A stretch of 64,000 nucleotides of DNA from Cytophagales bacterium (GCA_965277185.1 CBDICC010000020.1:63145-127144), one strand, 5' to 3'. Positions 17,240 to 33,052 are shown, counted from the stretch's first letter. Numbers and translations are program-made. Notes: generated from the letters alone by a model not told the origin.

Positions 17240-19888
17240 TTACTCATGAACCAACTTCAATGTCTGCTGACGATCTCCAATCTGAATGGTAACAAAATAA
17301 ACCCCTCTCCCTAAATTCTCAGAAATAGGCAATACTTTTTGGTTAACAGCTGAGCGTTCAAAAACAATTTGACCTAATACATTTCGTACCTGAAGAGAGG
17401 CGTTTTGGGCAATCATCTTTGTTGTAAATTCTACATAGAATTCTCCGTGAGTTGGATTGGGATAGATCCGAACACTTTCTAGGATTTCGTCCTCTAAACC
17501 TTGAAATAAAATATTGAAACATTGGGAGGTATCGACACATCCATCTTCGGTGATTTCTGCGGCATAAATCCCACTATTGCTTGGAGCATAAACCTGATTG
17601 GTTTCACCACCAATTACGCTGTAGCCATTATCACAATTCAACCAACGATAAGAACCTGTGCTACTACTGATGAACAACGTATTGTTTACAGAAGTTACTG
17701 CTGTATTAACGGTTTTGATAGTCAAGTGCAACGTTACGATCGAATCACACCCTAAAGCATTTGTGTACACATGAACTGGCTCTGATGAAGAAGTATACGT
17801 TATTCCATGCCAAGTGAATGATCCGCATTCTACAGCAGTGGTGTCACCGCTTAAGGTATTGAGTACGGTCAGGTGTAATGTGAGTACGGAATCACAACCA
17901 TTCGAAGCAACTAATGTATGTATGTAATCTCCAGCTCCATTATATGTATTGCCATGCCACATGATTGAACTACATACAGTAGCAGAAGTATCTCCCGTTG
18001 TAGCAGAATGAATAGATAAGTGCAATGTTAACACAGAATCACAACCGGTAGCATTTCCACCTATGAAAGTATGTTCGTAGTCTCCGCTTGAAGAATAAGT
18101 ATTTCCGTGCCAATCAAAGTTTCCGCATGCATTGGCTGTAGTATCTCCCGTTGTAGCAGAATGAATAGATAAGTGCAATGTTAACACAGAATCACAACCG
18201 GTAGCATTCCCACCTATGAAAGTATGTTCGTAGTCTCCGCTTGAAGAATAAGTATTCCCGTACCAATCAAAGTTTCCGCATGCACTTACGGTAGTATCCC
18301 CAGTAGTACCGGCACTAGAGTTGATGGTTAGATGCAATGTTAACACAGAATCACAACCAGTAGCATTTCCACCTATGAAAGTATGATCGTAGTCTCCGCT
18401 CGAAGAATAGGTATTCCCGTACCAGTCAAAGTTTCCGCATGCACTGGCTGTAGTATCACCATTGGTATTTCCGCTAGAATTAATCGTTAAATGTAAGGTT
18501 AAAACGGAGTCACATCCTCCTGCATTCCCACCAATAAATGTATAATTATAATCTCCACTTGAAGAATAAGTTGAACCATACCAGTTTATGCTATTGCATA
18601 CCGTTGCGGATGTATCACCGGTTGTATTTCCTCCTGGCACGATGGTTAAATGCAATGTCAAGACGGAATCACATCCAGCAGCATTCCCACCGGGGAAAGT
18701 ATGGTTGTAATCCCCACTTATTGAATAATTGGTTCCATACCATGTAAAATCACTGCATTGCGTTGCAGATGTATCGCCAACGGTATTAGACGAATCAATT
18801 ACTAAATGCAATGTAACTACGGAATCACAACCAGCAGCATTCCCACCAACGAAAGTATGATCATAATCTCCGCTTGAAGAATACGTATTCCCATACCAAG
18901 CAAAGCTTCCGCATTTTGTTACATTCGTGTCTCCTGTTGTGGGCAAATGGACGTCCAAATGGATGGTTAAGATTGAATCTCCACCCCAAATATTGGGAAT
19001 CGTATCTGTATAAATTCCGGCAGTAGTATATACGTCATTTCCACTAGGAACTGTGTAAGAAGCACCTTGACAAATCGTCGGATTAATAACGCCATAACTT
19101 AAAGGAATTCCACCAATTCGAGTCAAATGACCAAAAGCATTCGACCAGGTATTGTCAGTCCCTAATACTCGCAGATAGAAGACATGTAATCCCGTATCCG
19201 AAGGAAAAGAAGAAGGCGATTCTGAAATGCATTCAAGTGCGTGGTCAAGTGTACCATTAACCATAAGCAAAGCGAAGCCATTTCCTTGATCAGGATCGAC
19301 ATCCCAAAAATATTCGGCCTGAGTCAATTGAGTAGTACGCGTTATAATGGTGTTGTTTTTTACATTCACCGCATAACTAAATGCGTTCGACCAAAACCCA
19401 TCCTCGCCAAGAACACGTAAATGAAAACTATGCAGTCCTGCTGAAGGCAAGGAAACACTATCTGCGAATAACTGTTCGATTATTTCATTAAATCCTCCGT
19501 CCTGGGCTAGAATTGAAGTAGCTAGTCCTTGTCCCGGATCGGTATCCCAATAATATTCGGCTTGGGTGACTTGAGCGATCCGCGTGGTCAGAGTGTTGTT
19601 TTTGACATTTATTACATGGGTAAAAAGATTACTCCATGTTCCATTTAATCCTAAAACTCTAAGATTAAATGAATGAATTCCTACAGAAGGTAAATTGACG
19701 GAATCGCTTAATACTTGTTCAATGGCTTCGTCCATTGCTCCGTCCAAGGCCAAAATCGCAGTTCCATTTCCTTGTCCCGGATCGGTATCCCAGAAATATT
19801 CTGCATTTGTAATTTGTTGTGCTGTGCCAAAGGAACAGGTTAAAATCACAAAGGTGAATAAAAAAACTATTTTAGGAATGAATCTCAA
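17240..19888 (-). CDS. T9SS type-A C-terminal-sorting-domain repeat protein (882 aa)
   Basis: The C-terminus 'VRIYPNPTHGEFYVEF...GVYFVTIQIGDRQQTLKLVHE' is a Por_Secre_tail. Three N-terminal roughly 95-aa repeats ('AEYFWDTDPGQG...') are followed by at least 8 tandem roughly 51-aa repeats ('GDTxAxxCxxFxWYGxTYSSSGDYxHTFxGGNAxGCDSVLTLHLTI'). It has a signal peptide and a TTG start. Confidence 0.8.
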   Translation of the reverse strand: MRFIPKIVFLFTFVILTCSFGTAQQITNAEYFWDTDPGQGNGTAILALDGAMDEAIEQVLSDSVNLPSVGIHSFNLRVLGLNGTWSNLFTHVINVKNNTLTTRIAQVTQAEYYWDTDPGQGLATSILAQDGGFNEIIEQLFADSVSLPSAGLHSFHLRVLGEDGFWSNAFSYAVNVKNNTIITRTTQLTQAEYFWDVDPDQGNGFALLMVNGTLDHALECISESPSSFPSDTGLHVFYLRVLGTDNTWSNAFGHLTRIGGIPLSYGVINPTICQGASYTVPSGNDVYTTAGIYTDTIPNIWGGDSILTIHLDVHLPTTGDTNVTKCGSFAWYGNTYSSSGDYDHTFVGGNAAGCDSVVTLHLVIDSSNTVGDTSATQCSDFTWYGTNYSISGDYNHTFPGGNAAGCDSVLTLHLTIVPGGNTTGDTSATVCNSINWYGSTYSSSGDYNYTFIGGNAGGCDSVLTLHLTINSSGNTNGDTTASACGNFDWYGNTYSSSGDYDHTFIGGNATGCDSVLTLHLTINSSAGTTGDTTVSACGNFDWYGNTYSSSGDYEHTFIGGNATGCDSVLTLHLSIHSATTGDTTANACGNFDWHGNTYSSSGDYEHTFIGGNATGCDSVLTLHLSIHSATTGDTSATVCSSIMWHGNTYNGAGDYIHTLVASNGCDSVLTLHLTVLNTLSGDTTAVECGSFTWHGITYTSSSEPVHVYTNALGCDSIVTLHLTIKTVNTAVTSVNNTLFISSSTGSYRWLNCDNGYSVIGGETNQVYAPSNSGIYAAEITEDGCVDTSQCFNILFQGLEDEILESVRIYPNPTHGEFYVEFTTKMIAQNASLQVRNVLGQIVFERSAVNQKVLPISENLGRGVYFVTIQIGDRQQTLKLVHE
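17750..18960. repeat. in-CDS tandem DNA repeats with a period of about 153 bp (at least 8 copies). Two adjacent copies at about 17989-18142 and 18143-18296 are nearly identical.
   Basis: Direct reading: the block 'tatctcccgttgtagcagaatgaatagataagtgcaatgttaacacagaatcacaaccggtagcatt' recurs at 17989 and 18143 with only 2-3 mismatches over about 150 bp. Flanking copies are more diverged. Confidence 0.75.
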
Positions 19889-19951: not shown

Positions 19952-21151
19952 TTATCGATCAAATGAATATCCTTTTACGGCATTGGAGTTTCCTATGATG
20001 ATTTCCTGTGGCATTTCTAGAAAATATACTTTGGAGCTTGTACCCGTAATCGGATGAAAATTATTGATAGTATAGGAGCCGCCTAGGCATCCCGCATCGT
20101 TACGAGTAAGATCAAGGTCATAATAATCTAATCCTGGAGCACCTCCATCAATGGTGTTGGATGCTGTATTAGAACCATCCGAATTTATATCGAAGGAAAA
20201 AGGAGTACTGTTGCTGATTAGAGAAGATACTCCCACAATTGTAGCCATATTGAAGCCATATTCAATGTAATTATAAGCAGCTGTGACAGTTCCAGTGGAG
20301 AGATTTTGAATCCCATAATCCGCAGTCCCATGATCCGCAATAACGTTGTTGAAAATATAAAAACTTCCCGCAGATCCAGTGTTAAGGACGATTCCGTAAT
20401 CATTGGTAGTGATCGAGTTATTTCGAATGATGTTTTCCTTCGGACCAACCTTGGACCCTCTGATATGAATAGAATAAGCAAGATAATTGACTGTATTTCG
20501 CATGTAGTTATTACTTATTAATACATAATGACTTTGCGTATAGGAAGTAATGTATCGAATAGACATGTTGCCTATAACTTTGACGGTTTTGGTTCCACTC
20601 ACATTATCACTGTAAATTTCAACATCCCCACCACCTAAGTCGTTTCCAATAATGCTTCCATCGGTCAGTCGAATGTAGGTTCCATATCCAAAATTACAGC
20701 TGGCAACATTCAATTCGAAGTAATATGCATTGAACGAAATGTTTGCCGCCAGAAACTTACATGACATAAGATTCACAATTGTAGCGGAGGTGGCACCACT
20801 GCCACTCGCATTCACCGTACCTCCGGAATTATCCATACCAATGATATTTACTTCCCGACCAGGAGCATGTTCAACAGTATATGTACCTAATACTAAGAAT
20901 TGTTGATTATCCACCGCGCTAAGAAAGGTGAGAGATTTATTAATGGTGATATCTTCTATCCAGGGAAGGGCTGAAACCTTATTATTAATAATAATACGAT
21001 CTCCATCTACAGAGGCAGTAACTGCTGCACCAATGGATGCATAGGTTCCTACGGGACCACTATCCTGAACAACCAAATCCGTTCCGCTTGCGGTACAGGT
21101 GATCATCATGATAAGACCTAAAACACTAAGTAAAGATGTAATCTTTTTCAT
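19952..21151 (-). CDS. secreted hypothetical protein, probable right-handed beta-helix (pectin-lyase-like) fold
   Basis: 399 aa with an ATG start. The signal peptide is 'MKKITSLLSVLGLIMMITCTASG'. The sequence is Asn/Gly/Ser/Thr-rich with periodic 'NNxI/GxxxxN' beta-helix-like rungs, and there is no T9SS tail. Confidence 0.5.
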   Translation of the reverse strand: MKKITSLLSVLGLIMMITCTASGTDLVVQDSGPVGTYASIGAAVTASVDGDRIIINNKVSALPWIEDITINKSLTFLSAVDNQQFLVLGTYTVEHAPGREVNIIGMDNSGGTVNASGSGATSATIVNLMSCKFLAANISFNAYYFELNVASCNFGYGTYIRLTDGSIIGNDLGGGDVEIYSDNVSGTKTVKVIGNMSIRYITSYTQSHYVLISNNYMRNTVNYLAYSIHIRGSKVGPKENIIRNNSITTNDYGIVLNTGSAGSFYIFNNVIADHGTADYGIQNLSTGTVTAAYNYIEYGFNMATIVGVSSLISNSTPFSFDINSDGSNTASNTIDGGAPGLDYYDLDLTRNDAGCLGGSYTINNFHPITGTSSKVYFLEMPQEIIIGNSNAVKGYSFDR

Positions 21152-21397: not shown

Positions 21398-22108
21398 TTA
21401 ACATCGAGCAACCTTGCGCTTTTTTCCAATTTGTCCCTTTCCTTCCATTTTTATAATATAATCTGTAGCTACAGGAACTTTACAAGAAGTTTCGCCCATA
21501 AACACCTCTACCTTTCCAATCTTATCAGCTACCGCTTTGGCTTGGTCTAATAAAGGTGGTAAGTAGCTCCCAACAGAAATCACAAAGTTATTCATCGTAT
21601 ATCGAACTCGATTTTCTGCTTGGTGTACAGTATTGCCTACTCGCTCCAACAATTCAGCGTACTTTTTCAAATCTAATTCTTCAGTAGGTTTTATCGAAGC
21701 CATTCCCGATAAAGTGGCCCAACCAGCAGAAGTGATGAACTCGTTTTCGGTATTTTCAATCCATTTAAGACCCATTTCCCAACCATGTTCGGATTCTGCG
21801 CACACGGCTGATACGGCATAATCACTTAAATAATACCAATAAGCCGCTTCTACCCATTCTTGTAATTCCGCTTTGGTGATTTTGGTTTCATCCGCGATTA
21901 ATCCACCTAAATACATGGCGTCCGAGTTTCCTGTTTTGAAAAGCTGCAATGCTAATTCATGGTCTTTTTTAACCTTCTTAACAATGGTCTTTAAGTCGGC
22001 CACTTTTACACCATAAAATGGTTCTTTGGCTCCGTGACGGACGAGTACTTTCTTGGTTTGAGCGTTTCCCCATTCCTCCAACTTCGTCATTACTTCCTGA
22101 AATTCCAT
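21398..22108 (-). CDS. DNA alkylation repair enzyme (AlkC/AlkD-like HEAT-repeat DNA glycosylase family)
   Basis: 236 aa. The N-terminal pattern 'LEEWGNAQTKKVLVRHGAKEPFYGVKVADLKTIVKKVKKDHELALQLFKTGNSDAMYLGGLIAD' fits the DNA_alkylation family profile. Confidence 0.65.
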   Translation of the reverse strand: MEFQEVMTKLEEWGNAQTKKVLVRHGAKEPFYGVKVADLKTIVKKVKKDHELALQLFKTGNSDAMYLGGLIADETKITKAELQEWVEAAYWYYLSDYAVSAVCAESEHGWEMGLKWIENTENEFITSAGWATLSGMASIKPTEELDLKKYAELLERVGNTVHQAENRVRYTMNNFVISVGSYLPPLLDQAKAVADKIGKVEVFMGETSCKVPVATDYIIKMEGKGQIGKKRKVARC

Positions 22109-22202: not shown

Positions 22203-23618
22203 CTAAAATTTTATTCCTAAAATACAAATATCATCTAATTGTTCATGTCCACCTTTCCAGTTTAAAAACTCTTTATGAAAGCGAATTTTTTGTCGTTCAA
22301 GTGGTTTTTGACATACAGAACCAATGAAGTTTCGCAATCGCTTATAGGAATATTTTCTTCCTAAGTCTCCACCAAATTGATCTGCAAAACCATCACTAAA
22401 TACATAAATTAAATCCCCTTTCTCAAGTTGAACATTATGGTTTTGATAGGGATACATGGCTATGGAATGCCCTATAGTTGATTTGGTGGCTTTAGTTTCT
22501 GTTAATTGTCCGTCTCGTACATGGTATAATGGGTTATATGCACCAGAATATTCCAATTCCAAAGTGTCTAAATTGACTTTAATTAAAGCAATGTCCATTC
22601 CATCCAAGCTATAGATTAGCTCCTCACGATTTCCAAGAACATGAATGAATTGGGTACGGAGTCTTTCCAGGACATCACTTGGTTTGATGTCGGGATTTTC
22701 TTTTATAATTTCATTGAGATAAGATATGCCCAACAAACTTAAGAATGCACCAGAAACGCCGTGGCCTGTACAATCGGCAGCAGCAACATACCAGGTGTTG
22801 TCCTTTTGGTAGTTCCAGTAAAAATCCCCACTGACAATATCCTTAGGGTGAAAAAATACAAAATGCTCGGGCAAATGCTTGCTCACATAAGACTCCTCGT
22901 CCATTAATGCATTTTGAATCCGTTGTGCATACATTAGGTTGTCGGTTAAATCCTTGTTTTTTTCATTCAGAAGGGCATTGGCTGTTTTGACTTCGTCCTG
23001 ACGAACATTGAGAGCATTGTTTTTAAGCTTAACCTGATTAATTATGGCCGCACGTACATCAATATATCGAATCAGAATATACGCCAACACACCCACCATC
23101 AGAATAAAATTAAAGAGCAAAGCCCATTGATTGTTCGTGGTCGCAACTATGGCATTTTGATGATAAATATCAAATTGGCGGAGTGCATAAAGAACCGTGA
23201 CAATGCATACGTCTAAAATGGCGAAAAAAATGGTAACGCGTTTACTTAACAAAAACGATACGATCACGATGTGAATAATGTAATAGGGAGCGGCCAAAAA
23301 ATCAATACTACTTCCCATCTGAATGAAACTGATTGTAGTAGAAATTAAATTGGCGATCGCAAAAAACAAAGATGCTTTATGTGTAGAACGAGTCCATTTT
23401 AAAACTAAGGGTGTAGCAAGAAGAAGAGATAATGCAAGAAATGTGAAAACAAGCAGGTGCCAAGCGCCATAATAGATCATTAGCGGCACAGAAGACAATG
23501 TAATTAACCCATAGCCAACCGGAAGATAGATAACTAGTTTAGCCTTAGCTATCCCTAAATGATCATCCAAGCCAATTTGGAGTAATCGAATTAACCAAGC
23601 ATGAATTTTGCGTTTCAA
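22203..23618 (-). CDS. membrane-anchored PP2C-family Ser/Thr phosphatase (SpoIIE-like) with an N-terminal multi-TM sensor and coiled coil
   Basis: About 6 N-terminal TM helices, then a coiled coil ('KLKNNALNVRQDEVKTANALLNEKNKDL'), then the PP2C core 'SGDFYWNY...YVAAADCTGHGVSGAFLS' ... 'DGMDIALIKV' ... 'YVFSDGFADQFG'. TTG start at 23618. An alternative ATG lies at residue 47. Confidence 0.75.
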   Translation of the reverse strand: MKRKIHAWLIRLLQIGLDDHLGIAKAKLVIYLPVGYGLITLSSVPLMIYYGAWHLLVFTFLALSLLLATPLVLKWTRSTHKASLFFAIANLISTTISFIQMGSSIDFLAAPYYIIHIVIVSFLLSKRVTIFFAILDVCIVTVLYALRQFDIYHQNAIVATTNNQWALLFNFILMVGVLAYILIRYIDVRAAIINQVKLKNNALNVRQDEVKTANALLNEKNKDLTDNLMYAQRIQNALMDEESYVSKHLPEHFVFFHPKDIVSGDFYWNYQKDNTWYVAAADCTGHGVSGAFLSLLGISYLNEIIKENPDIKPSDVLERLRTQFIHVLGNREELIYSLDGMDIALIKVNLDTLELEYSGAYNPLYHVRDGQLTETKATKSTIGHSIAMYPYQNHNVQLEKGDLIYVFSDGFADQFGGDLGRKYSYKRLRNFIGSVCQKPLERQKIRFHKEFLNWKGGHEQLDDICILGIKF

Positions 23619-25343: not shown

Positions 25344-25569
25344 GGAGTAAAATTAGTAAGCTCCATGGAAAGTAAGCCGAATTTCAGCGGTTTTTTACCA
25401 AATAAATTAAGGAATGGAGAATGCAAGTTGCAGTTTCCCATTAGACTTGATGTTGATTACGTTAGTCCATCTTATTTGATAGATGATAATTTAATTAGCC
25501 TATTAGGTGCTTTTTTTTGAGTAAATATATAAGAATGTCGCATGCCTTCTAAAATGAAATAGAATGAGG

Positions 25570-25611
25570 AATCTATATTATTGAAAACTCCTAATAATAT
25601 AGATTCCTGAT
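25570..25611. promoter_or_regulatory. perfect 16-bp inverted repeat (aggaatctatattatt / aataatatagattcct) with a 10-nt loop
   Basis: Read directly. It lies about 100-140 bp downstream of the giant AAA+ gene stop (25708) and about 230 bp upstream of the enoyl-CoA hydratase start. The AT-rich stem is followed on the minus strand by a T-rich stretch. It could be a terminator or an operator. Confidence 0.3.
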
Positions 25612-25707: not shown

Positions 25708-28700
25708 TTACTTTGATTTAGACGGTTTTGAACGTTTAATTAATTCATCTTGATTTGCTTCCAACTTAGCTAAAACGCGAAGTAATAGTTGATATGATAC
25801 ATTATCAGAGGATTGTTGTAGTTGCACCGGCTGTCCAGGTTGATCAGAAGTCTTAGGTTGCTCTGTAGGTTGTGGTGCTTGTGCAAGTGTTCCATGAATT
25901 TCATTTAAGCTATTGCCCAATGATTCCAATTGACTTTCTAGTCCGGAGAAATCTACTCCATCAGAATGTTTGGATCGATTGTTTTGCACAAAAGTGGTTG
26001 TGATGTTTTTCCAACGCTCTTGTTCTTCTTCTGTAATTATTCCGAAAATTTGCTTGAACTTTAGCATGTTTGCCTCCGCTCCTGTGGTCAAGGTCTGACT
26101 TTCGTTTTCATAATGAGAAGAAAGCAACGTTTTCAACTCCTGATCATTCATGATAGGAGATAAGCGCTCTACAATTTTGTTCATATTACGATAGGACCCT
26201 TGTAGTTTAAATGGTGGTTCTTCTCGATATTCGTCCGATTGTCCTGCCGATTCGATATACTGAAGATTGACCTTTAATACAATTTTTTGAACTTCCAGTA
26301 CTTTTTGAAGCAATGAAACACACTCACTAATCTCCTCAGGTGAATAATTGCCAGTTAAATCAATCCCAGTCATGTCGCCTGTACGTGCAGCTTTGACCAA
26401 CTTCAAGAAATCTTCTTGATCTTTTGAAGCGACTTTATTCAATATTGAGTTAGAAGAGGTGCTATTTTCGATGTAACTTAATTTGAAGGATTCGTCATTG
26501 TCCCCCATGATATCTCCTAGATTGTAAATGTCGGCCCGATTGGCTAACATATCCGGAATACGGAATTTTTCGCCACTTTCAGTGTATGGGTTTCCAGCCA
26601 TAATTACGGCGACTTTTTTACCTCTAAAGTCGTACGTTTTTGCCTTTCCTTTGTAAACTCCTTCTACTTTTCGTTGAGCATCACATAATGAAATGAATTT
26701 TTGTAAAAACTCAGGATTACAATGCTGAATATCGTCAAGATATATCATTACGTTATCCCCCATTTCGAAGGCGAGATTTAATTTTTTCAATTCCTCCCGG
26801 GCACTTGCATTTCCAGCCTGTTCCGGATCCATTGAGGTAACTTCATGCCCAATGGAAGGACCATTGATTTTCATGAAAACAACGCCTAAACGACTAGCGA
26901 TATATTCCATTAAGGTCGTTTTACCATAACCTGGAGGAGAGATCAATAGAAGCATTCCCATTAAGTCGGTCCGTTTGTCTTCTCCTGCCGTACCAATTTG
27001 TTTGGCCAAGTTAGCCCCAATTAAAGGCAAGTAAACCTTGTCTATAAGTTGGTTTCGGACAAAGGAGCCCATCACCCTTGGTTTGAATTCTTTTAGGCGT
27101 AATTCGGATTCAAATCGGTGCAATAGGTCTTGCTTATATTCTCTGAATTGTAAGAATTCAGGCACTTGTATATTTACAAAATCCTTTAATCGGGAAGAAA
27201 GACTACGGTAGTTTAAAATATATTTTTCCTCACTAATAACCGAATGAGAGCCATTCATGCCATCAATTTCTTGTTCAGTAGCGACTCTAACTACATTTTT
27301 ACTCTTTGGTTTACCGTTTAATAGGATGAAGGCAATTTCATCTGTGTAATTTTCATATTGAGGATGCTTAAGCATCCAAGACTCTATCCAACTCCGAACC
27401 AAATGCAATTTTTTAGAAATAGATTCATTTAACTCGTTAATGGAGGTTTCAAAAGAGCTTAAGGCTCGTTTTTCCTTTAAATAAGCATTGAATTCTCCAA
27501 ATCCGTCAAAGGCAGCACCCTCAACTATGAATTCATCGTGGCATGAAATCTCTTCAAAGAGATATTCAGCCGCAGAATCAATTAGGTCTTCTGAAAATAG
27601 CTTGGTTTCGTCAATAAATGCGCTGAGTTGTATTTTTAAATGCGCAAGTAAATTGTCGAAAACATTGGAGTCAGGAAAGACAGATAATACTGCTCCTGCA
27701 CCTTTTAACTGTTTTTCCATGGTGGACTTATCTTCCGCAAAATACGTCCAATAGATCGAAGCAAGAGCTCTTGCACTCGAACTGAAACGAAGACGTTTAG
27801 CCTCTAAATGGAGGGAAATTAGTTGGAATAATATTTTTGCAGCATCAAAATCATGAATTCCTTTCACATATCCTTCGTTGTATCTCAACGACATTTTTGT
27901 CTGCGTAAAAAGAATCAACTCCTTTTCCGTCTGGGTATGTAATGTTTGGAGCGTAAATAGATTATTATCGGGATCATCTAATTTAGCGAGCAATGCTTCT
28001 TGGAAAATGGTGTAGGCTAAATATTCTGCTCGATACACTTGTGAATTTTCCGATACTACAGATTGACTCCAAATTGCTTGGCTGTCATTGATTTTTGCAT
28101 CCTCAATTTCTTCGAAAAAATTTGTGCCTGTAATATGGAAGTGCATTTTTTCATTTCGCTCAATCATTGATACTCCAACAGATTGATCATTGACCAGGAA
28201 ATTATGATTACCAAAAGAAAGAGTGCTTCCATCCTCTGTGAAGAGTTCTTTTTTGTCTTTTAATTGGCGTACAGATTCTTCCTTGGCTGTATTAAGTTTA
28301 CTTTGGATGTCATCTGATTTTATCGAATCACCTAATTTTAAAAGCTGATCAATAATAGATCGGGCCTTTTCTACCATCAAATCAGAAGCCATGTAACCAT
28401 TAATCTCATTGACATCTTGTAGTTGGGCAAGGCGATTTTTGATGGCTTTTATCAATCGTTCAGCAGATTGATAGAGCGCATTATTCTTTTTATCAAGTGC
28501 TTCTTTGATTTCAATTTTTCGACCGTCAAACGCATTATAAATTTCTTCTCGCTTAATGGCTAACTTTTCGATGTACTCGTCGAAATCAGAAAACTTCCCT
28601 TCCAATTCCTCCACTTGAATCATTAATTTGGTCAGGTATTCTTCACACTTGGATGTGGTGTCACATAAATCCAAATAGTTTATTAAACCTTGTCCAATCA

Positions 28701-30783
28701 AATTCATTTGAGCAGTGAACTCTGCTTTTCCTTCCACAGAAAGTAATTCTTTCCGTCTCTTTTTTAACGCAGCACGAAGGGTGTTGTACTGAGCATAAAT
28801 GGAAGAGATTTGATCGATAATGGAGGTAGTTTGCGTGGCGTCCTCAATTTTCAAATTACTTACCACATCTATTAATAATTCAAGCTCTTTTGCACGATCG
28901 TTGATGTTTTGATCTACTTCATTTGCTTCAACGACCTTCTTGGTGTCTTTGATGTCTTGTTCAAGAACTCCAATTTTATCTTGATAGGGTGTAAGGGCAT
29001 TGGGTTTTATTAGGAAGTTAACGCATCCTTGCGAGAGCAATTCATTTTGCTTGCCAAGTTGAGTTTCGAACGCTTCTACTGCTTCAATGTCGATGTACCT
29101 AAGTTCTTTAAGCGAAATAACTTCTCCTCGAAGAATTCTAAATGCCGCAAGATCTTCCACAAACTCACTGACCGCTTTTCGATTTGCACGCTTAACTTTT
29201 GCAATAAGTGTAGTTACATTTTCGCCCACTTTTTCGAATTGATCAGTAGTGTTCTTTCGGATTTGAACAACTTTTTCGAATTCTTCAATGGCCGTATTGG
29301 AAGTGCCTTTGATTTCAGTAATGGGTGCCGCAAGATTGTACGTTTCTTCCTGATTAAGCCAGAAATAAGCATCCAAGGTGTTTGTAGATGACTTTAAAAG
29401 ATCGGCATACAAACCGCCATAGGAGTCATCTTTGTCAATTAAATTGAGGAGGTCATTGCATTCAGCCATAGCTCGAACAACTTCCTTATTTCCAATCTTC
29501 TGTAAATAACTATCTGAATTGGATGCAATTTGAAAATCAGCGTGTGTGTAAGGCGTTTGCCAAATTTGAATTTGATGGATCTTTTTAGGTTCTGTGTCTT
29601 CTTTGAAAAAAGCCAGTTCCCCATTTTCAAATAAGGAGTATCCATTACACGTAATAGGTGTTTTGACGGATTGATCAATAATATTGTAGGAAAGAAGTAA
29701 GTATCTTCCGAATTCCAAATTGTAAAAGACAAACAAGAAATCCTCTCCATTTGGGGATGGGATTTTACGTTCAAATAGCGTCTCATTTACATTGTGTTCT
29801 ATTATTTTAAATTCACCAGATTGAAGACAATATCCCGTTGAAAAAATAATACCCTGATCATCAGGAAGTAAAACGCATCCATTCGCAATGGCATCAATTC
29901 GTTTCGCTTTTTGTGTCTTTTTGTTAAATACAATGTACCGCCATTCTTTTTCCTGAAATGGTAGAATTTTGAAAAGAAATAGATTCCCAACGCGTGCATA
30001 AAAGATATCCGCATCATCTAATGTTTGATCGGCTTGATCCACTAATTCGGCATATACTCCTTTGCCTGTGGCAGTGTTGTTTTCAACTTTGATGGTAATG
30101 TCACCGCCAATTGATTCCACAAATACTTCGTCTTCAATCGATACATGTGGATGTTCTCCATCCATGTGCATGTCACGGGTTGTTTTTGTCCACTGAAATT
30201 CCGTTTGTTCTGGAAAACGAAATTCATGGTCACTTCGAGCATCTTGGTATTCAATGGTATCTTCTTTTATCAACCATTTGAACGTTTTAATGTCTTTCAC
30301 ATTTTTTCCAGATCGAAAAACCATGTAAAGGAAAGTGCCAATCTTAGAAAACTTTACAAATTGAGTATGTTTATAATATTTGTAGAGATTGTCGAAATCA
30401 TTTAAGAAAGTAGGATCTTTTAGAGGCTCTAAAGAGGTCTCTGTGTACTGATGATTTTCATACGCATAGGTACTAATTACATCGGCAACGTCTATTTTAG
30501 TTTTTAGGCCAAATTGTACGTTGTAGCCAAAGAGAATCATCTTTCCTATGGAAATCATATCCCACGGAACACAGTTGTTTTGAGTACTAATGCGTTCGGT
30601 AGTAATGATTTTTGTGTCAATAGATCCAAATGCGGTCTTTCGCTCGTCGTTAAGCTTGCCTAATCGAAGCCTAAGATCTTCGCCTTGTTTATTAAGCCGA
30701 TTTCTTAAAATTTCATAGGTGCCACCCTCTAATTCGACATTAGCTGGATTATTGGTTGTATCGTTGGATTTGCTTTCTGACAT
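25708..30783 (-). CDS. giant cytoplasmic multidomain protein (1691 aa) with a MoxR/AAA_5-type AAA+ ATPase module
   Basis: ATG start with no signal peptide or TM segment. The first roughly 430 residues are beta-rich and a helical/coiled-coil region of about 700 aa follows. The AAA+ core carries Walker A 'ISPPGYGKTTLMEY', Walker B 'VMIYLDDIQHCNPE' and a sensor region 'VAVIMAGNPYTESGEKFRIPDMLANRADIYNL' (MoxR-like 'ATQNP...LPEA.LDRF'). A Gln/Pro-rich C-terminal tail completes it. Confidence 0.7.
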   Translation of the reverse strand: MSESKSNDTTNNPANVELEGGTYEILRNRLNKQGEDLRLRLGKLNDERKTAFGSIDTKIITTERISTQNNCVPWDMISIGKMILFGYNVQFGLKTKIDVADVISTYAYENHQYTETSLEPLKDPTFLNDFDNLYKYYKHTQFVKFSKIGTFLYMVFRSGKNVKDIKTFKWLIKEDTIEYQDARSDHEFRFPEQTEFQWTKTTRDMHMDGEHPHVSIEDEVFVESIGGDITIKVENNTATGKGVYAELVDQADQTLDDADIFYARVGNLFLFKILPFQEKEWRYIVFNKKTQKAKRIDAIANGCVLLPDDQGIIFSTGYCLQSGEFKIIEHNVNETLFERKIPSPNGEDFLFVFYNLEFGRYLLLSYNIIDQSVKTPITCNGYSLFENGELAFFKEDTEPKKIHQIQIWQTPYTHADFQIASNSDSYLQKIGNKEVVRAMAECNDLLNLIDKDDSYGGLYADLLKSSTNTLDAYFWLNQEETYNLAAPITEIKGTSNTAIEEFEKVVQIRKNTTDQFEKVGENVTTLIAKVKRANRKAVSEFVEDLAAFRILRGEVISLKELRYIDIEAVEAFETQLGKQNELLSQGCVNFLIKPNALTPYQDKIGVLEQDIKDTKKVVEANEVDQNINDRAKELELLIDVVSNLKIEDATQTTSIIDQISSIYAQYNTLRAALKKRRKELLSVEGKAEFTAQMNLIGQGLINYLDLCDTTSKCEEYLTKLMIQVEELEGKFSDFDEYIEKLAIKREEIYNAFDGRKIEIKEALDKKNNALYQSAERLIKAIKNRLAQLQDVNEINGYMASDLMVEKARSIIDQLLKLGDSIKSDDIQSKLNTAKEESVRQLKDKKELFTEDGSTLSFGNHNFLVNDQSVGVSMIERNEKMHFHITGTNFFEEIEDAKINDSQAIWSQSVVSENSQVYRAEYLAYTIFQEALLAKLDDPDNNLFTLQTLHTQTEKELILFTQTKMSLRYNEGYVKGIHDFDAAKILFQLISLHLEAKRLRFSSSARALASIYWTYFAEDKSTMEKQLKGAGAVLSVFPDSNVFDNLLAHLKIQLSAFIDETKLFSEDLIDSAAEYLFEEISCHDEFIVEGAAFDGFGEFNAYLKEKRALSSFETSINELNESISKKLHLVRSWIESWMLKHPQYENYTDEIAFILLNGKPKSKNVVRVATEQEIDGMNGSHSVISEEKYILNYRSLSSRLKDFVNIQVPEFLQFREYKQDLLHRFESELRLKEFKPRVMGSFVRNQLIDKVYLPLIGANLAKQIGTAGEDKRTDLMGMLLLISPPGYGKTTLMEYIASRLGVVFMKINGPSIGHEVTSMDPEQAGNASAREELKKLNLAFEMGDNVMIYLDDIQHCNPEFLQKFISLCDAQRKVEGVYKGKAKTYDFRGKKVAVIMAGNPYTESGEKFRIPDMLANRADIYNLGDIMGDNDESFKLSYIENSTSSNSILNKVASKDQEDFLKLVKAARTGDMTGIDLTGNYSPEEISECVSLLQKVLEVQKIVLKVNLQYIESAGQSDEYREEPPFKLQGSYRNMNKIVERLSPIMNDQELKTLLSSHYENESQTLTTGAEANMLKFKQIFGIITEEEQERWKNITTTFVQNNRSKHSDGVDFSGLESQLESLGNSLNEIHGTLAQAPQPTEQPKTSDQPGQPVQLQQSSDNVSYQLLLRVLAKLEANQDELIKRSKPSKSK

Positions 30784-30949
30784 ACTATCTCAAAAACAGT
30801 TGTTGAACTTCTGTATATATTAATTTTCTATGCACTATTAGGCAACATCCTAAATTAGATTGAAGGGGGCATAGTTTAATTAGGTAATTTAATTGCCCCC
30901 TTAACAAATTTGTTGCCATCAACTCACTTTTCAGCGAGAAGGGACTTCA

Positions 30950-33052
30950 TTAAATAAGTCCCAAGTCTCCTACCGCTTTATTGGCAATTCCTAAGAAATT
31001 GGCCATGTTTAGCAAGCTTCCTAAAGAGTTTTGAGTCTCTTCATTCGTAGATTTGTTGGCCATCGTGTTCAATAAGTTAGCGACAGAAAGATTTTTGACG
31101 TCATCGGAATTCATTCCGAATTGGCCAATGAAATCTTTAAGATTCTCTTTAAATGAAAGACCATTTTTAGTATCGAAGAAGGTGTCCTTGATTTGAGTAA
31201 GGGTTTGGCTATTATCCATTAATCGATCCGTTGATTTACCTTTAGTAATGGAGTTTACAATTTTGTCAAAGAATTGCCCATCACCACCAACAATATCGAT
31301 GTTGGCTTGCGCTAATGCTTGAGCGAGTACTTTGGCTTGAGCTTCCGCTATATCGGACTGAATATTGATGTGTGCCAATTCAATTTCTTTGTCTTTGTCC
31401 AATCTTAATTTGAATTCCTCATGATCTCTTCCAACTCCATCAAGCTTTTGCATAGCGTTTGCTTTCTGCTCAATTCCTTTTGCTTCAGCTTCGTATTTTA
31501 ACTCATCAACTTTCGCTTCTGCAGTACCTTGCTTTTCAATGGCACTAGCCTTCGTTTCAATTACCTCGGCTTCTGCAAAACCTTTTTCTTTGTCTCCAGT
31601 GGCATAGGCGAGAGCTTCTAATTCGATTATTTTCGCATCCGATTCACCTTTTTTGATCATGGCAGAGGCTGTAGCTTCGATCACTTGAGCTTCTCCCATT
31701 CCTTTTGCAGCTACTTCAGCGGCTTCTGCTTCAGCCATTATTTTCTTAGCTTCAGCTTGCTTGACGGCCGCTTCTTTTTGAGCTTCCGCCTGGATTAATA
31801 ATTCTTTCGCTAAATGCTCAGCCGATGCCTTGCGTGCTTCTGCTGCTTTAATTTCCTTCACAAGATTTTCTTGCGCTTCTTGTTCTGCTTTTGTTAAAGC
31901 GACAGTCTTTTCACGATCCGCTCCGGCAAATGCCACAGTATCTTTGATTTTCTCTTGCTCTTCGACAACGGCCTTTTCAACTACAACCCGTTCTCTGATT
32001 ACCTCTTGAATATCTCTACGCTCTTCCTCTACCGCTTTTTCTTTTGCAATTTGAGCTAGTGTAACAATCTTTTCTCTTTCAGTAATTTCAAGTTCTTGCT
32101 CTTTCTTTACGCGTTCCTCTTCAATCACTTTCGCCCGCTCCATGTTTAATCTAGCTATTTCGATTTGACGAATTTTGTTTTGTTCTAAAACGGCTATTTC
32201 TTCAGTGGCTGAAATTCGTGCACGTTCCGATTTTTGGAATTCTTCTTCTTTTACTTTATCGATTTCCGCTTGTTCACGAGAATGGATCGTTTCTATTTCA
32301 CGACGTTGCTCTTCCTCTTTTTCTTTCAATTGCTTTTCGAGTTCCAAAACGGTTTCTCGAGCTTCAACATCTTGTTTTTTGATTGTTTTTTCTTTGTCAC
32401 GTTCGATTAAATTGGATTTTACTTTTTCCTGAGATGTTAAATCAATAATCTTTTTGATCCCTTCTGCATCAAGAATATTGAACTCATCCAATTGAGTCAT
32501 TGGTGTCTGTTCTAAGTAATCAATAGCACAATCGTCCAAAACATAACCATTTAAGTCCGTTCCGATTACTTGTAGAATTTCCTTCTTAAACTCATCTCGA
32601 GCATTATACAATTCTACAAAGTCGAATCGCTTACCGACTGTTTTTAATGCTTCAGAAAACTTTGCATCAAACAAAGATTCCAGCATTTTTGGATCTGAGG
32701 CACGAGGAGCTCCAATGGATTGAGCTACGGTGACGACATCTTCCTTGGTTTTATTTACTCGAACAAAGAACGTTACTTTGATGTCAGCACGCATATTGTC
32801 TTTGCAAATCAGACCGTCTCCCCCTTCTCGGGCTGTAATAATTTTCTTTACCGTTATGTCCATCAATTCATGGCGATGGAGAACGGGGATAATAATGATC
32901 CCGTTAAAACTGACTTTGGTGCCTCCGACACCTGTCCGTACAATTGATTGTCCTTGCTTGGCTTTTTTGTACCATGTGGCAATCATTACAAGTATTGCTA
33001 TGGAAAAGAGTACCAAGACTCCGATGGAAATGTATAAGGTTGAACCTAGCAT
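30950..33052 (-). CDS. flotillin / SPFH (band-7) family protein, YqiK-like, with a long Ala/Glu/Lys-rich coiled coil
   Basis: 700 aa. An N-terminal TM helix is followed by an SPFH domain ('VRTGVGGTKVSFNGIIIIPVLHRHELMDI..KDNMRADIKVTFFVRV'), then a long EA-repeat coiled coil ('EAKKIMAEAEAAEVAAKGMGEAQ'). Confidence 0.8.
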   Translation of the reverse strand: MLGSTLYISIGVLVLFSIAILVMIATWYKKAKQGQSIVRTGVGGTKVSFNGIIIIPVLHRHELMDITVKKIITAREGGDGLICKDNMRADIKVTFFVRVNKTKEDVVTVAQSIGAPRASDPKMLESLFDAKFSEALKTVGKRFDFVELYNARDEFKKEILQVIGTDLNGYVLDDCAIDYLEQTPMTQLDEFNILDAEGIKKIIDLTSQEKVKSNLIERDKEKTIKKQDVEARETVLELEKQLKEKEEEQRREIETIHSREQAEIDKVKEEEFQKSERARISATEEIAVLEQNKIRQIEIARLNMERAKVIEEERVKKEQELEITEREKIVTLAQIAKEKAVEEERRDIQEVIRERVVVEKAVVEEQEKIKDTVAFAGADREKTVALTKAEQEAQENLVKEIKAAEARKASAEHLAKELLIQAEAQKEAAVKQAEAKKIMAEAEAAEVAAKGMGEAQVIEATASAMIKKGESDAKIIELEALAYATGDKEKGFAEAEVIETKASAIEKQGTAEAKVDELKYEAEAKGIEQKANAMQKLDGVGRDHEEFKLRLDKDKEIELAHINIQSDIAEAQAKVLAQALAQANIDIVGGDGQFFDKIVNSITKGKSTDRLMDNSQTLTQIKDTFFDTKNGLSFKENLKDFIGQFGMNSDDVKNLSVANLLNTMANKSTNEETQNSLGSLLNMANFLGIANKAVGDLGLI

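Follow-up and report, generated by a model that had tools for sequence, protein, structure and literature searches.

A giant soluble AAA+ ATPase of the DUF3686-DUF7902 family, encoded with a flotillin and an NfeD-like protein, as a candidate remodeller of bacterial membrane scaffolds

What does a giant soluble ATPase, known to databases as a DNA repair enzyme, do at the end of an operon for membrane-scaffold proteins? The question is raised by a stretch of 64,000 nucleotides (nt) from a Cytophagales bacterium (GCA_965277185.1 CBDICC010000020.1:63145-127144), referred to below as the window, in which the ORF list and translation give an intact open reading frame (ORF) of 5,076 nt with an ATG start and a product of 1691 amino acids (Table 1). 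The protein belongs to a DUF3686-DUF7902-AAA+ family that is widespread in bacteria. More than 3,236 homologues are found at E<=1e-10, with a query coverage of 94–100% and an identical Pfam set (DUF3686, DUF7902 and AAA) in all of the best 120 listed. The N-terminal 860 residues are matched by 1,103 clusters formed at 50% identity, and the homologues are colinear over this part down to 26–28% identity. Given these numbers of homologues and clusters, the ORF and its architecture are far beyond chance. The closest relatives in a scan of species-representative genomes share at most 57% identity with the protein. NCBI names the product 'DNA repair ATPase' and Pfam gives DUF3686 the title 'ATPase involved in DNA repair'; a literature search for DUF3686 or PF12458 found no paper that mentions either.

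The gene neighbourhood points to the membrane. The genome scan returned 483 relatives, the best 80 loci of which were used, and their six-frame ORFs were searched with the proteins of the window. These loci come from at least six phyla and include Bacteroidota, Planctomycetota, Verrucomicrobiota, Desulfobacterota, Clostridia and Chitinispirillaceae. A flotillin gene lies directly upstream of the ATPase gene and on the same strand in 68 of the 70 loci with enough upstream DNA, and a YqiJ-like gene is present in 65 of 67. The YqiJ/NfeD-like protein with three transmembrane (TM) segments, the YqiK-type flotillin and the giant AAA+ protein hence form a conserved three-gene membrane module, and all-versus-all clustering of the neighbouring ORFs of the 80 loci revealed no further conserved neighbour. 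This module is extended in Bacteroidota by PspA, a CesT-like protein and a divergent helix-turn-helix (HTH) regulator, found in 24, 22 and 22 of 62 loci, respectively, all of which are from Bacteroidota wherever the record title names the lineage. The arrangement can also be read from existing annotations: in Streptomyces a hypothetical gene is followed by a gene for a 'flotillin family' protein and then by the 'DNA repair ATPase', and the equivalent flotillin gene is called 'SPFH domain-containing' or 'flotillin family' in RefSeq records of Pseudomonas and Streptomyces. The operon thus ties the ATPase to flotillin/PspA membrane biology, a connection that the first-pass annotation of the window had missed.

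The same neighbourhood bears on the database label. A role of the protein as a DNA repair ATPase is scarcely credible, the label itself being its main support, along with weak RuvB_N matches at the P-loop and a DNA_alkylation repair gene located 3.6 kb downstream in the window. However, searches of the ATPase revealed neither a domain for DNA binding nor a nuclease or helicase domain, the similarity to RuvB is confined to about 45 residues around the P-loop, and no paper linking the family to repair was found. The conserved neighbours are all membrane-scaffold proteins, whereas the downstream genes that were tested (ECH, EamA and PP2C) are conserved in none of the related loci, and the proximity of the DNA_alkylation gene has no evident link to the label. 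The annotation 'DNA repair ATPase' is therefore unsupported by domains or conserved context, misleading and widely propagated.

In the window, the genes for the CesT-like protein, PspA, the YqiJ/NfeD-like protein, the YqiK-type flotillin and the AAA+ protein are co-directional and in this order, with the HTH regulator gene divergent. The flotillin is recognized only at the profile level. When searched as a single sequence, the 700-residue protein retrieved nothing from Pfam, NCBIfam or the PDB, and Band_7 is matched by one of 22 members of the flotillin family; in contrast, a profile of 22 orthologues aligns with Escherichia coli YqiK over 394 columns with an hhalign probability of 100% (E=4e-40) and matches QmcA at E=1e-3. 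It is on the basis of the comparison with YqiK that the protein is assigned as a YqiK-type flotillin. Its single TM segment (residues 1–31) is followed by KKAK, and the bulk of the protein is therefore predicted to be cytoplasmic. Flotillins encoded with the ATPase exceed E. coli YqiK by about 150 residues and share an invariant C-terminal module (residues ~520–700, 30950–31500) with the motif HEEFKL at 544–549, GG at 589–590, F594 and R610, which aligns poorly to YqiK; this module may be where the ATPase docks. The 226-residue neighbour matches E. coli YqiJ at E=1e-5 in BLASTP. E. coli YqiJ-YqiK and Bacillus subtilis YuaF-FloT are homologous to the YqiJ-like protein and the flotillin of the conserved triad.

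An operon of this kind has already been described. Ravi et al. (mSystems 2024, PMC11237479) described the ATPase as 'beta-propeller + coiled-coil + AAA-ATPase', took Dokdonia donghaensis ANH61663.1 as the prototype context, with the same gene string in their Table S3 as in the window, where the HTH regulator is entered as 'cHTH+Protease', and found abbreviated flotillin-YqiJ-ATPase operons to be more widespread, in agreement with the loci analysed here. They proposed a role in the assembly or dynamics of membrane-associated complexes and drew an analogy to ESCRT. The window has the order of their group 1, with all five genes co-directional and the HTH gene divergent, and this order recurs in 22–24 Bacteroidota loci; the ATPase of the window differs in nothing essential from that of the described operon and is another member. 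As Pfam and Ravi et al. already cover the architecture, the window ATPase adds little new in this respect. What is new relative to PMC11237479 is the quantified synteny, the AlphaFold2 (AF2) models, the invariant Asp-Asp Walker B, the motif in the middle domain and the test of the AAA+ clade.

We hypothesize that the ATPase is an ATP-driven remodeller of flotillin/NfeD membrane scaffolds, acting with PspA where PspA is encoded, and we give this reading about an even chance of being right. Scaffold remodelling is proposed since the partners are a flotillin and an NfeD-like protein, the ATPase itself is soluble and its nucleotide-binding motifs are invariant. The soluble protein would oligomerize through its single AAA+ module, presumably into a hexamer, and would reach the cytoplasmic face of the membrane by means of its N-terminal β-propeller and long helical stalk. 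The flotillin/NfeD scaffold, which faces the cytoplasm, would then be remodelled, opened or taken apart at the expense of ATP, and where PspA is present the ATPase would work jointly with the PspA polymer during envelope stress. In this scheme we infer how the protein oligomerizes, that it touches flotillin or PspA physically and in which direction it remodels; Vps4 acting on ESCRT-III and FtsH with the HflK/C cage are proposed as functional parallels. Flotillin forms large cages (PMC13000311, PMC11260169), FtsH is found in complex with the SPFH proteins HflK/C (PMC13220708), and both FtsH-HflK/C and the m-AAA protease with prohibitin pair an SPFH scaffold with an AAA+ machine (PMC13220708, PMC12005517). 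FtsH, however, is membrane-anchored, of the classical clade and equipped with a zinc protease domain, while the ATPase described here is soluble and has no protease domain. Several observations weigh against scaffold remodelling. E. coli yqiK is not followed by an ATPase gene, and both E. coli YqiJK and B. subtilis YuaF-FloT function without such an ATPase. Two of the related loci (L019 and L069) have no flotillin gene despite more than 7 kb of upstream sequence. In the protein itself the Walker B motif ends in Asp-Asp and has no catalytic Glu, and the segment between β2 and α2 (GPSIGHEVTS) shows no obvious aromatic residue of a canonical pore loop. Moreover, the literature search turned up no experiments on DUF3686-DUF7902-AAA+ proteins.

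The partners that suggest a remodeller would also suit a client-processing motor. In such a system the ATPase would extract, unfold or release clients held by an ATP-independent flotillin-NfeD holdase, and the FloA-NfeD pair of Staphylococcus aureus has been reported to hold and stabilize unfolded proteins without ATP (PMC11222466). The pairing of SPFH cages with AAA+ proteases such as FtsH-HflK/C (PMC13220708) is in line with this, and the β-propeller is a plausible client- or adaptor-binding domain. On the other hand, there is neither a protease domain in the ATPase nor a protease gene in the conserved module. Because no aromatic pore loop is evident, substrate threading is uncertain, and this feature, the Asp-Asp Walker B and the unexplained GxHDxDA motif of the middle domain (see below) together caution against a simple threading model. 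The data presented here do not distinguish a client from the scaffold as the substrate, and we regard the client-processing motor as rather unlikely.

How far PspA belongs to this function is a separate question. The ATPase might be a dedicated disassemblase for PspA, a member of the ESCRT-III superfamily, and hence an analogue of Vps4, with the flotillin merely serving as a membrane platform. In favour of this, PspA is encoded in the same operon here and in 24 of the 62 loci, an AAA+ ATPase is thereby genetically coupled to an ESCRT-III-superfamily protein at the membrane, with polymer remodelling as the proposed activity, and a Vps4-like ATPase appears to be absent in bacteria according to a 2025 review (PMC7619361). 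PspA also appears on the 425-kb plasmid pQBR103 of Pseudomonas fluorescens SBW25 (L089, 1–12226), in an unrelated operon type. There, a cluster of genes for PspA, a rhomboid protein, DUF2491, DUF350 and DUF1190 proteins and a glutathionylspermidine synthase is followed by a hypothetical gene, the SPFH protein gene and then the gene for a 'DNA repair ATPase'. The presence of PspA in the window-type operon and in the pQBR103 cluster therefore indicates that the PspA linkage arose in two operon types. However, most loci outside Bacteroidota have the flotillin and ATPase genes but no PspA gene close by (38 of the 62 loci), and although PspA could be encoded elsewhere in these genomes, it is for this reason that we consider flotillin to be the invariant partner. 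The ATPase further differs from Vps4 in having a propeller and no MIT-like domain, in its coupling to flotillin rather than to PspA and in its pre-sensor-1 hairpin, which argues against the Vps4 clade. A dedicated PspA disassemblase is thus, in our view, a poor bet. The pQBR103 arrangement also joins two PspA operon types that Ravi et al. (PMC11237479) treated separately.

A broader version of the remodelling hypothesis, which we put forward only tentatively and hold to be possible but doubtful, is that the family provides the missing remodelling or disassembly machine for both SPFH cages and PspA/ESCRT-III polymers. It would then be a counterpart of Vps4 drawn from an unrelated orphan lineage, with a clathrin-like propeller-plus-leg mode of recruitment and with the GxHDxDA domain as a second activity or docking site. 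For the disassembly or reset of bacterial flotillin scaffolds and PspA polymers the family offers a concrete candidate, one whose genetics are accessible in Bacteroidota, Pseudomonas and Streptomyces, and its interest would be all the higher if the SPFH and ESCRT-III scaffolds of bacteria were indeed remodelled by it.

The architecture of the protein was taken from two AF2 models built from a 58-sequence alignment, covering residues 1–860 and 861–1691 with a mean predicted local distance difference test (pLDDT) score of 84.7 and 80.0, respectively. A β-rich N-terminal domain, a helical spacer of about 700 residues, a single ATPase module and a Q/P-rich tail had been proposed from the sequence, in a 1691-residue protein with neither a TM segment nor a signal sequence. 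Most of this is borne out. The N-terminal domain folds in the model into a β-propeller, for which strand counting (about 29 strands between residues 58 and 409) suggests about seven blades, and the top PDB matches of the N-terminal model in Foldseek are WD40-type propellers, namely DCAF1 (3e-6), the clathrin terminal domain, Vps18 and BamB. The middle of the protein is long and helical as described, but it is not one unit. In the AF2 layout a stalk of long helices is followed by a small β element, a compact helical domain and the helices that precede the AAA+ module, so that the spacer comprises at least two distinct units. The Q/P-rich stretch is present at ~1635–1660, disordered in the model and within a tail that is not conserved: the mean column identity of the last ~90 residues is 0.19, and over half of the homologues have gaps in the tail. 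A whole-protein Kyte-Doolittle scan in 19-residue windows found no TM segment or signal peptide, with a hydropathy maximum of 1.09, where TM segments in the products of the neighbouring genes reach 2.8, and the ATPase is accordingly a soluble, predicted cytoplasmic protein. Where the first-pass annotation could match neither the N-terminal 430 residues nor the central helical region to a named family, the former and part of the latter do have one. Residues 36–474 match the whole of the DUF3686/PF12458 model (1–448 of 448) with 609.1 bits against a cut-off of 25 (E=5e-183), and residues 595–679 of the helical region match DUF7902/PF25472 with 95 bits against a cut-off of 26 (E=3e-27).

A propeller joined to an extended helical region is likewise found in the clathrin heavy chain, whose terminal domain and linker were retrieved by Foldseek, and in Vps18. 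The TM-scores of these matches are low (0.12–0.19), and the helices of the ATPase are long single helices or coiled coils and not an α-solenoid, so the resemblance is architectural only. The compact middle domain is modelled with high confidence and had neither a Pfam match nor a PDB sequence match. The invariant residues of this region are E912, the motif G975-x-H977-D978-x-D980-A981 (27841–27861), R1005, E1149 and H1180, and from this pattern the domain with its GxHDxDA motif may be a binding interface or an unrecognized active site. The 'HDxD' within this motif is reminiscent of HD phosphohydrolases, but an upstream invariant His, a suitably placed downstream invariant Asp and a Pfam match are all lacking, and this reading was rejected. 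Ravi et al. mention another PspA-linked ATPase with a second, degenerate AAA domain (PMC11237479). A domain of this kind was considered for the window protein and rejected as well, as residues 918–1156 are all-helical in the confident AF2 model.

The defining features of the AAA+ superfamily are present in the C-terminal part, namely a Walker A motif of the form GxxGxGK[ST], a Walker B motif of the form hhhhD[DE], a polar sensor-1 residue after β4 and a candidate arginine finger before β5. The Walker A, Walker B and IMAGNPYTE motifs quoted from the sequence were all located by back-translation. SPPGYGKTT corresponds to residues 1282–1290 (26914–26940) and VMIYLDD to residues 1345–1351 (26731–26751), the latter within IYLDDIQHCNPE and followed by IQHCNPE, and the IMAGNPYTE...IPDMLANRADIYNL block covers residues 1394–1422. 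The interval from the sensor-1 residue N1398 to the candidate arginine finger R1416 corresponds to 26536–26595. That there is a single ATPase module agrees with the lone Pfam AAA/AAA_5 match (1278–1402) and with the one α/β core at ~1277–1425 in the AF2 model, and in a full-length alignment with 61 family members at 28–47% identity this C-terminal module is colinear. The Asp-Asp pair of Walker B, in which Asp replaces the usual catalytic Glu, is invariant across the 62 members. Since the ATPase motifs remain invariant at this level of divergence, catalysis or nucleotide binding is under selection. An Asp-Asp Walker B is unusual for AAA+ proteins, and the hydrolysis may be slow, regulated or switch-like.

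To which AAA+ clade the module belongs was addressed with structural features and with profile comparisons. In the established AAA+ classification, proteins of the classical AAA clade, such as Vps4, FtsH and Cdc48/p97, have neither a pre-sensor-1 hairpin nor a sensor-2 arginine. In the AF2 model a β-hairpin is found between α3 and β4 at residues 1372–1385 (26629–26670), with strands at 1372–1377 and 1380–1385. A pre-sensor-1 hairpin is also a feature of the Clp-D2, RuvB and Lon clades. A candidate for sensor 2 is R1532 of the invariant QGSYR motif (26188–26202), which according to the model and the alignment begins the lid helix 1531–1539. When the isolated AAA modules of 34 members were tested against Pfam, AAA and AAA_5 each matched all 34, with best E-values of 2e-9 and 7.6e-9, respectively. 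For the isolated module of the window protein AAA_5 scored 36.1 bits and AAA 34.8 bits, and AAA_3, which represents MoxR proper, matched the module of none of the 34 members. When the PDB was searched by sequence and by profile, be it with the whole protein, the C-terminal alignment or the isolated module, only ~40–45 residues of the P-loop region were aligned, to p97/Cdc48 and RuvB, and such searches for this reason cannot assign the clade. A Foldseek search with the AAA region returned a mix of RuvB, NorQ and MCM at E ~1e-3, and structural matches of this sort call for caution, as the monomer model is least confident (pLDDT <50) in the two core stretches with the strongest conservation. An hhalign comparison of the family AAA profile with eight E. 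coli ATPases (RavA, RuvB, FtsH, ClpX, Lon, ClpB, YifB and PspF) placed RuvB first and RavA of the MoxR family last, although the scores are driven by the P-loop and the ranking is weak evidence, which shows no more than that MoxR is not singled out by sequence.

The ATPase had initially been assigned to the MoxR/AAA_5 clade and not to the classical one. This assignment is supported in part. The pre-sensor-1 hairpin, R1532 and the lead of about 1 bit for AAA_5 favour a MoxR-like, non-classical module. Against it, AAA matches equally well, AAA_3 never matches, RavA is the weakest hhalign match, and the hairpin insert in helix 2 is not predicted in the AF2 monomer model, which instead has a short helix at 1308–1311, a 14-residue loop and a helix at 1326–1341. 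The absence of an adjacent vWA-partner gene, already remarked upon from the sequence, was confirmed for the 14 flanking genes of the window, and no vWA protein is among the recurrent partners of the homologues in the 80 loci. In addition, compared to NorQ, CbbQ and RavA, the protein has ~1,270 extra N-terminal residues and the Asp-Asp Walker B. That the protein is a MoxR-type chaperone of the canonical kind, which together with a vWA partner inserts a cofactor into a target complex or matures it, is thus extremely unlikely. From the model, we would describe the module as an orphan AAA+ lineage with a pre-sensor-1 hairpin, neither classical nor demonstrably MoxR.

Defence systems commonly include large NTPases in which a propeller or repeat domain acts as the sensor. 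An anti-phage or abortive-infection module, in which the ATPase would sense infection and trigger a perturbation of the membrane, would be in keeping with this architecture, with the occurrence of a few copies on megaplasmids and with the divergent HTH protein, which resembles the RmrA and CapH regulators in PADLOC, albeit through a generic HTH only. Nonetheless, none of the six proteins had a specific match in PADLOC-DB v2, the hits being to generic AAA and HTH models and at E>=9e-5 for the ATPase. Among 50,697 phage records none contains a member of the family, and of 72,556 plasmid records only 13 do, 10 of which are typed as non-mobilizable; the plasmids listed are all at least 169 kb in size and several are Mb-sized. 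Furthermore, within Bacteroidota the gene order is stable and the full-length identity is ~50–55%, in keeping with a vertically inherited housekeeping or stress function. A role in defence is therefore very unlikely.

Table 1. Positions of the ATPase, its predicted domains, the operon genes and nearby elements in the window
Feature	Position	Strand	Basis and remarks
Giant AAA+ protein gene	25708..30783	-	Final gene of the operon; homologues colinear over the full length
N-terminal helix, residues 20-52	30628..30726	-	AF2; R48, F52 and G53 conserved
β-propeller, residues 58-409, ~7 blades	29557..30612	-	Core of PF12458; AF2 pLDDT ~85-93, ~29 strands
Long-helix stalk, residues 427-845, including DUF7902 (28747-29001)	28249..29505	-	AF2 helices of 20-58 residues, pLDDT ~70-94
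Small β element (~846-892) and compact all-helical middle domain (~918-1156)	27304..28248	-	AF2; middle domain pLDDT >90
Pre-AAA segment, residues 1170-1264: two short strands, two long helices (1192-1264)	26992..27276	-	AF2; FVRNxLIDxVYLPLIG conserved
AAA+ α/β core, residues 1277-1425	26509..26955	-	Pfam AAA_5 and AAA; AF2; invariant columns
Lid and C-terminal helical domain, residues 1430-1634	25882..26496	-	AF2; invariant R1520 and QGSYR 1528-1532
Variable tail, residues 1635-1691: Q/P-rich stretch, then terminal helix	25711..25881	-	Not conserved; pLDDT <50 at 1636-1660
YqiK-type flotillin (SPFH), 700 amino acids	30950..33052	-	Directly upstream of the ATPase gene; one N-terminal TM segment, SPFH domain, E/A-rich coiled coil, conserved C-terminal module
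YqiJ/YuaF-type (short NfeD-like) 3-TM membrane protein, 226 amino acids	33138..33818	-	Weak Pfam YqiJ_N and NfeD; three hydrophobic segments
PspA/IM30 (bacterial ESCRT-III), 263 amino acids	33892..34683	-	Pfam PspA_IM30, E=4.5e-41
CesT/Tir-like (YbjN-like) chaperone-fold protein, 145 amino acids	34670..35107	-	Pfam CesT_Tir_1, E=1e-51; first operon gene
Cro/XRE-type HTH regulator, 264 amino acids	35197..35991	+	Divergent; Pfam HTH_3 and HTH_19
Perfect 9-3-9 palindrome TTTGCTAAATATTTTAGCAAA	35161..35181	.	In the 89-nt region between the HTH and CesT-like genes
Candidate operon-end hairpin, 17-bp perfect stem, AT-rich, readable on both strands	25567..25608	.	~100 nt past the ATPase stop codon; terminator scan

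The non-coding elements of the operon offer some hints as to its control. The palindrome TTTGCTAAATATTTTAGCAAA occurs once in the window, where 0.03 matches would be expected by chance, and may serve the HTH protein as its operator. The exact palindrome was not found in the related loci, some of which (L013, L040, L045 and L070) have loosely similar palindromes with TTAGC/GCTAA in them. The hairpin downstream of the ATPase gene likely marks the end of the operon. Another hairpin lies within the operon at ~30868–30907 (minus strand), in the gap of 166 nt that separates the ATPase gene from the flotillin gene, and its arms AAGGGGGCA and TGCCCCCTT are 22 nt apart. Judged from its sequence, this hairpin may act as an attenuator or in the processing or stabilization of the RNA, and in this way set the expression ratio of flotillin to ATPase. 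This gap is 0.6–2.3 kb long in several other loci, compared to 166 nt in the window, and in Nibribacter koreensis (L003, 6650–8800) three small membrane-protein ORFs of 226, 180 and 191 amino acids, the last two of which are alike, are located between the flotillin and ATPase genes. Elsewhere in the window, a 399-residue ORF at 19952–21151, for which no Pfam match was found, adjoins the gene for an 882-residue protein at 17240–19888 (minus strand) with a C-terminal Por_Secre_tail domain for type IX secretion sorting; this domain and the best homologues of the ATPase both point to Bacteroidota. Downstream of the operon, a SpoIIE/PP2C-type phosphatase with a 270-residue N-terminal region and the DNA_alkylation repair-domain protein are encoded at 22203–23618 and 21398–22108, respectively, both on the minus strand.

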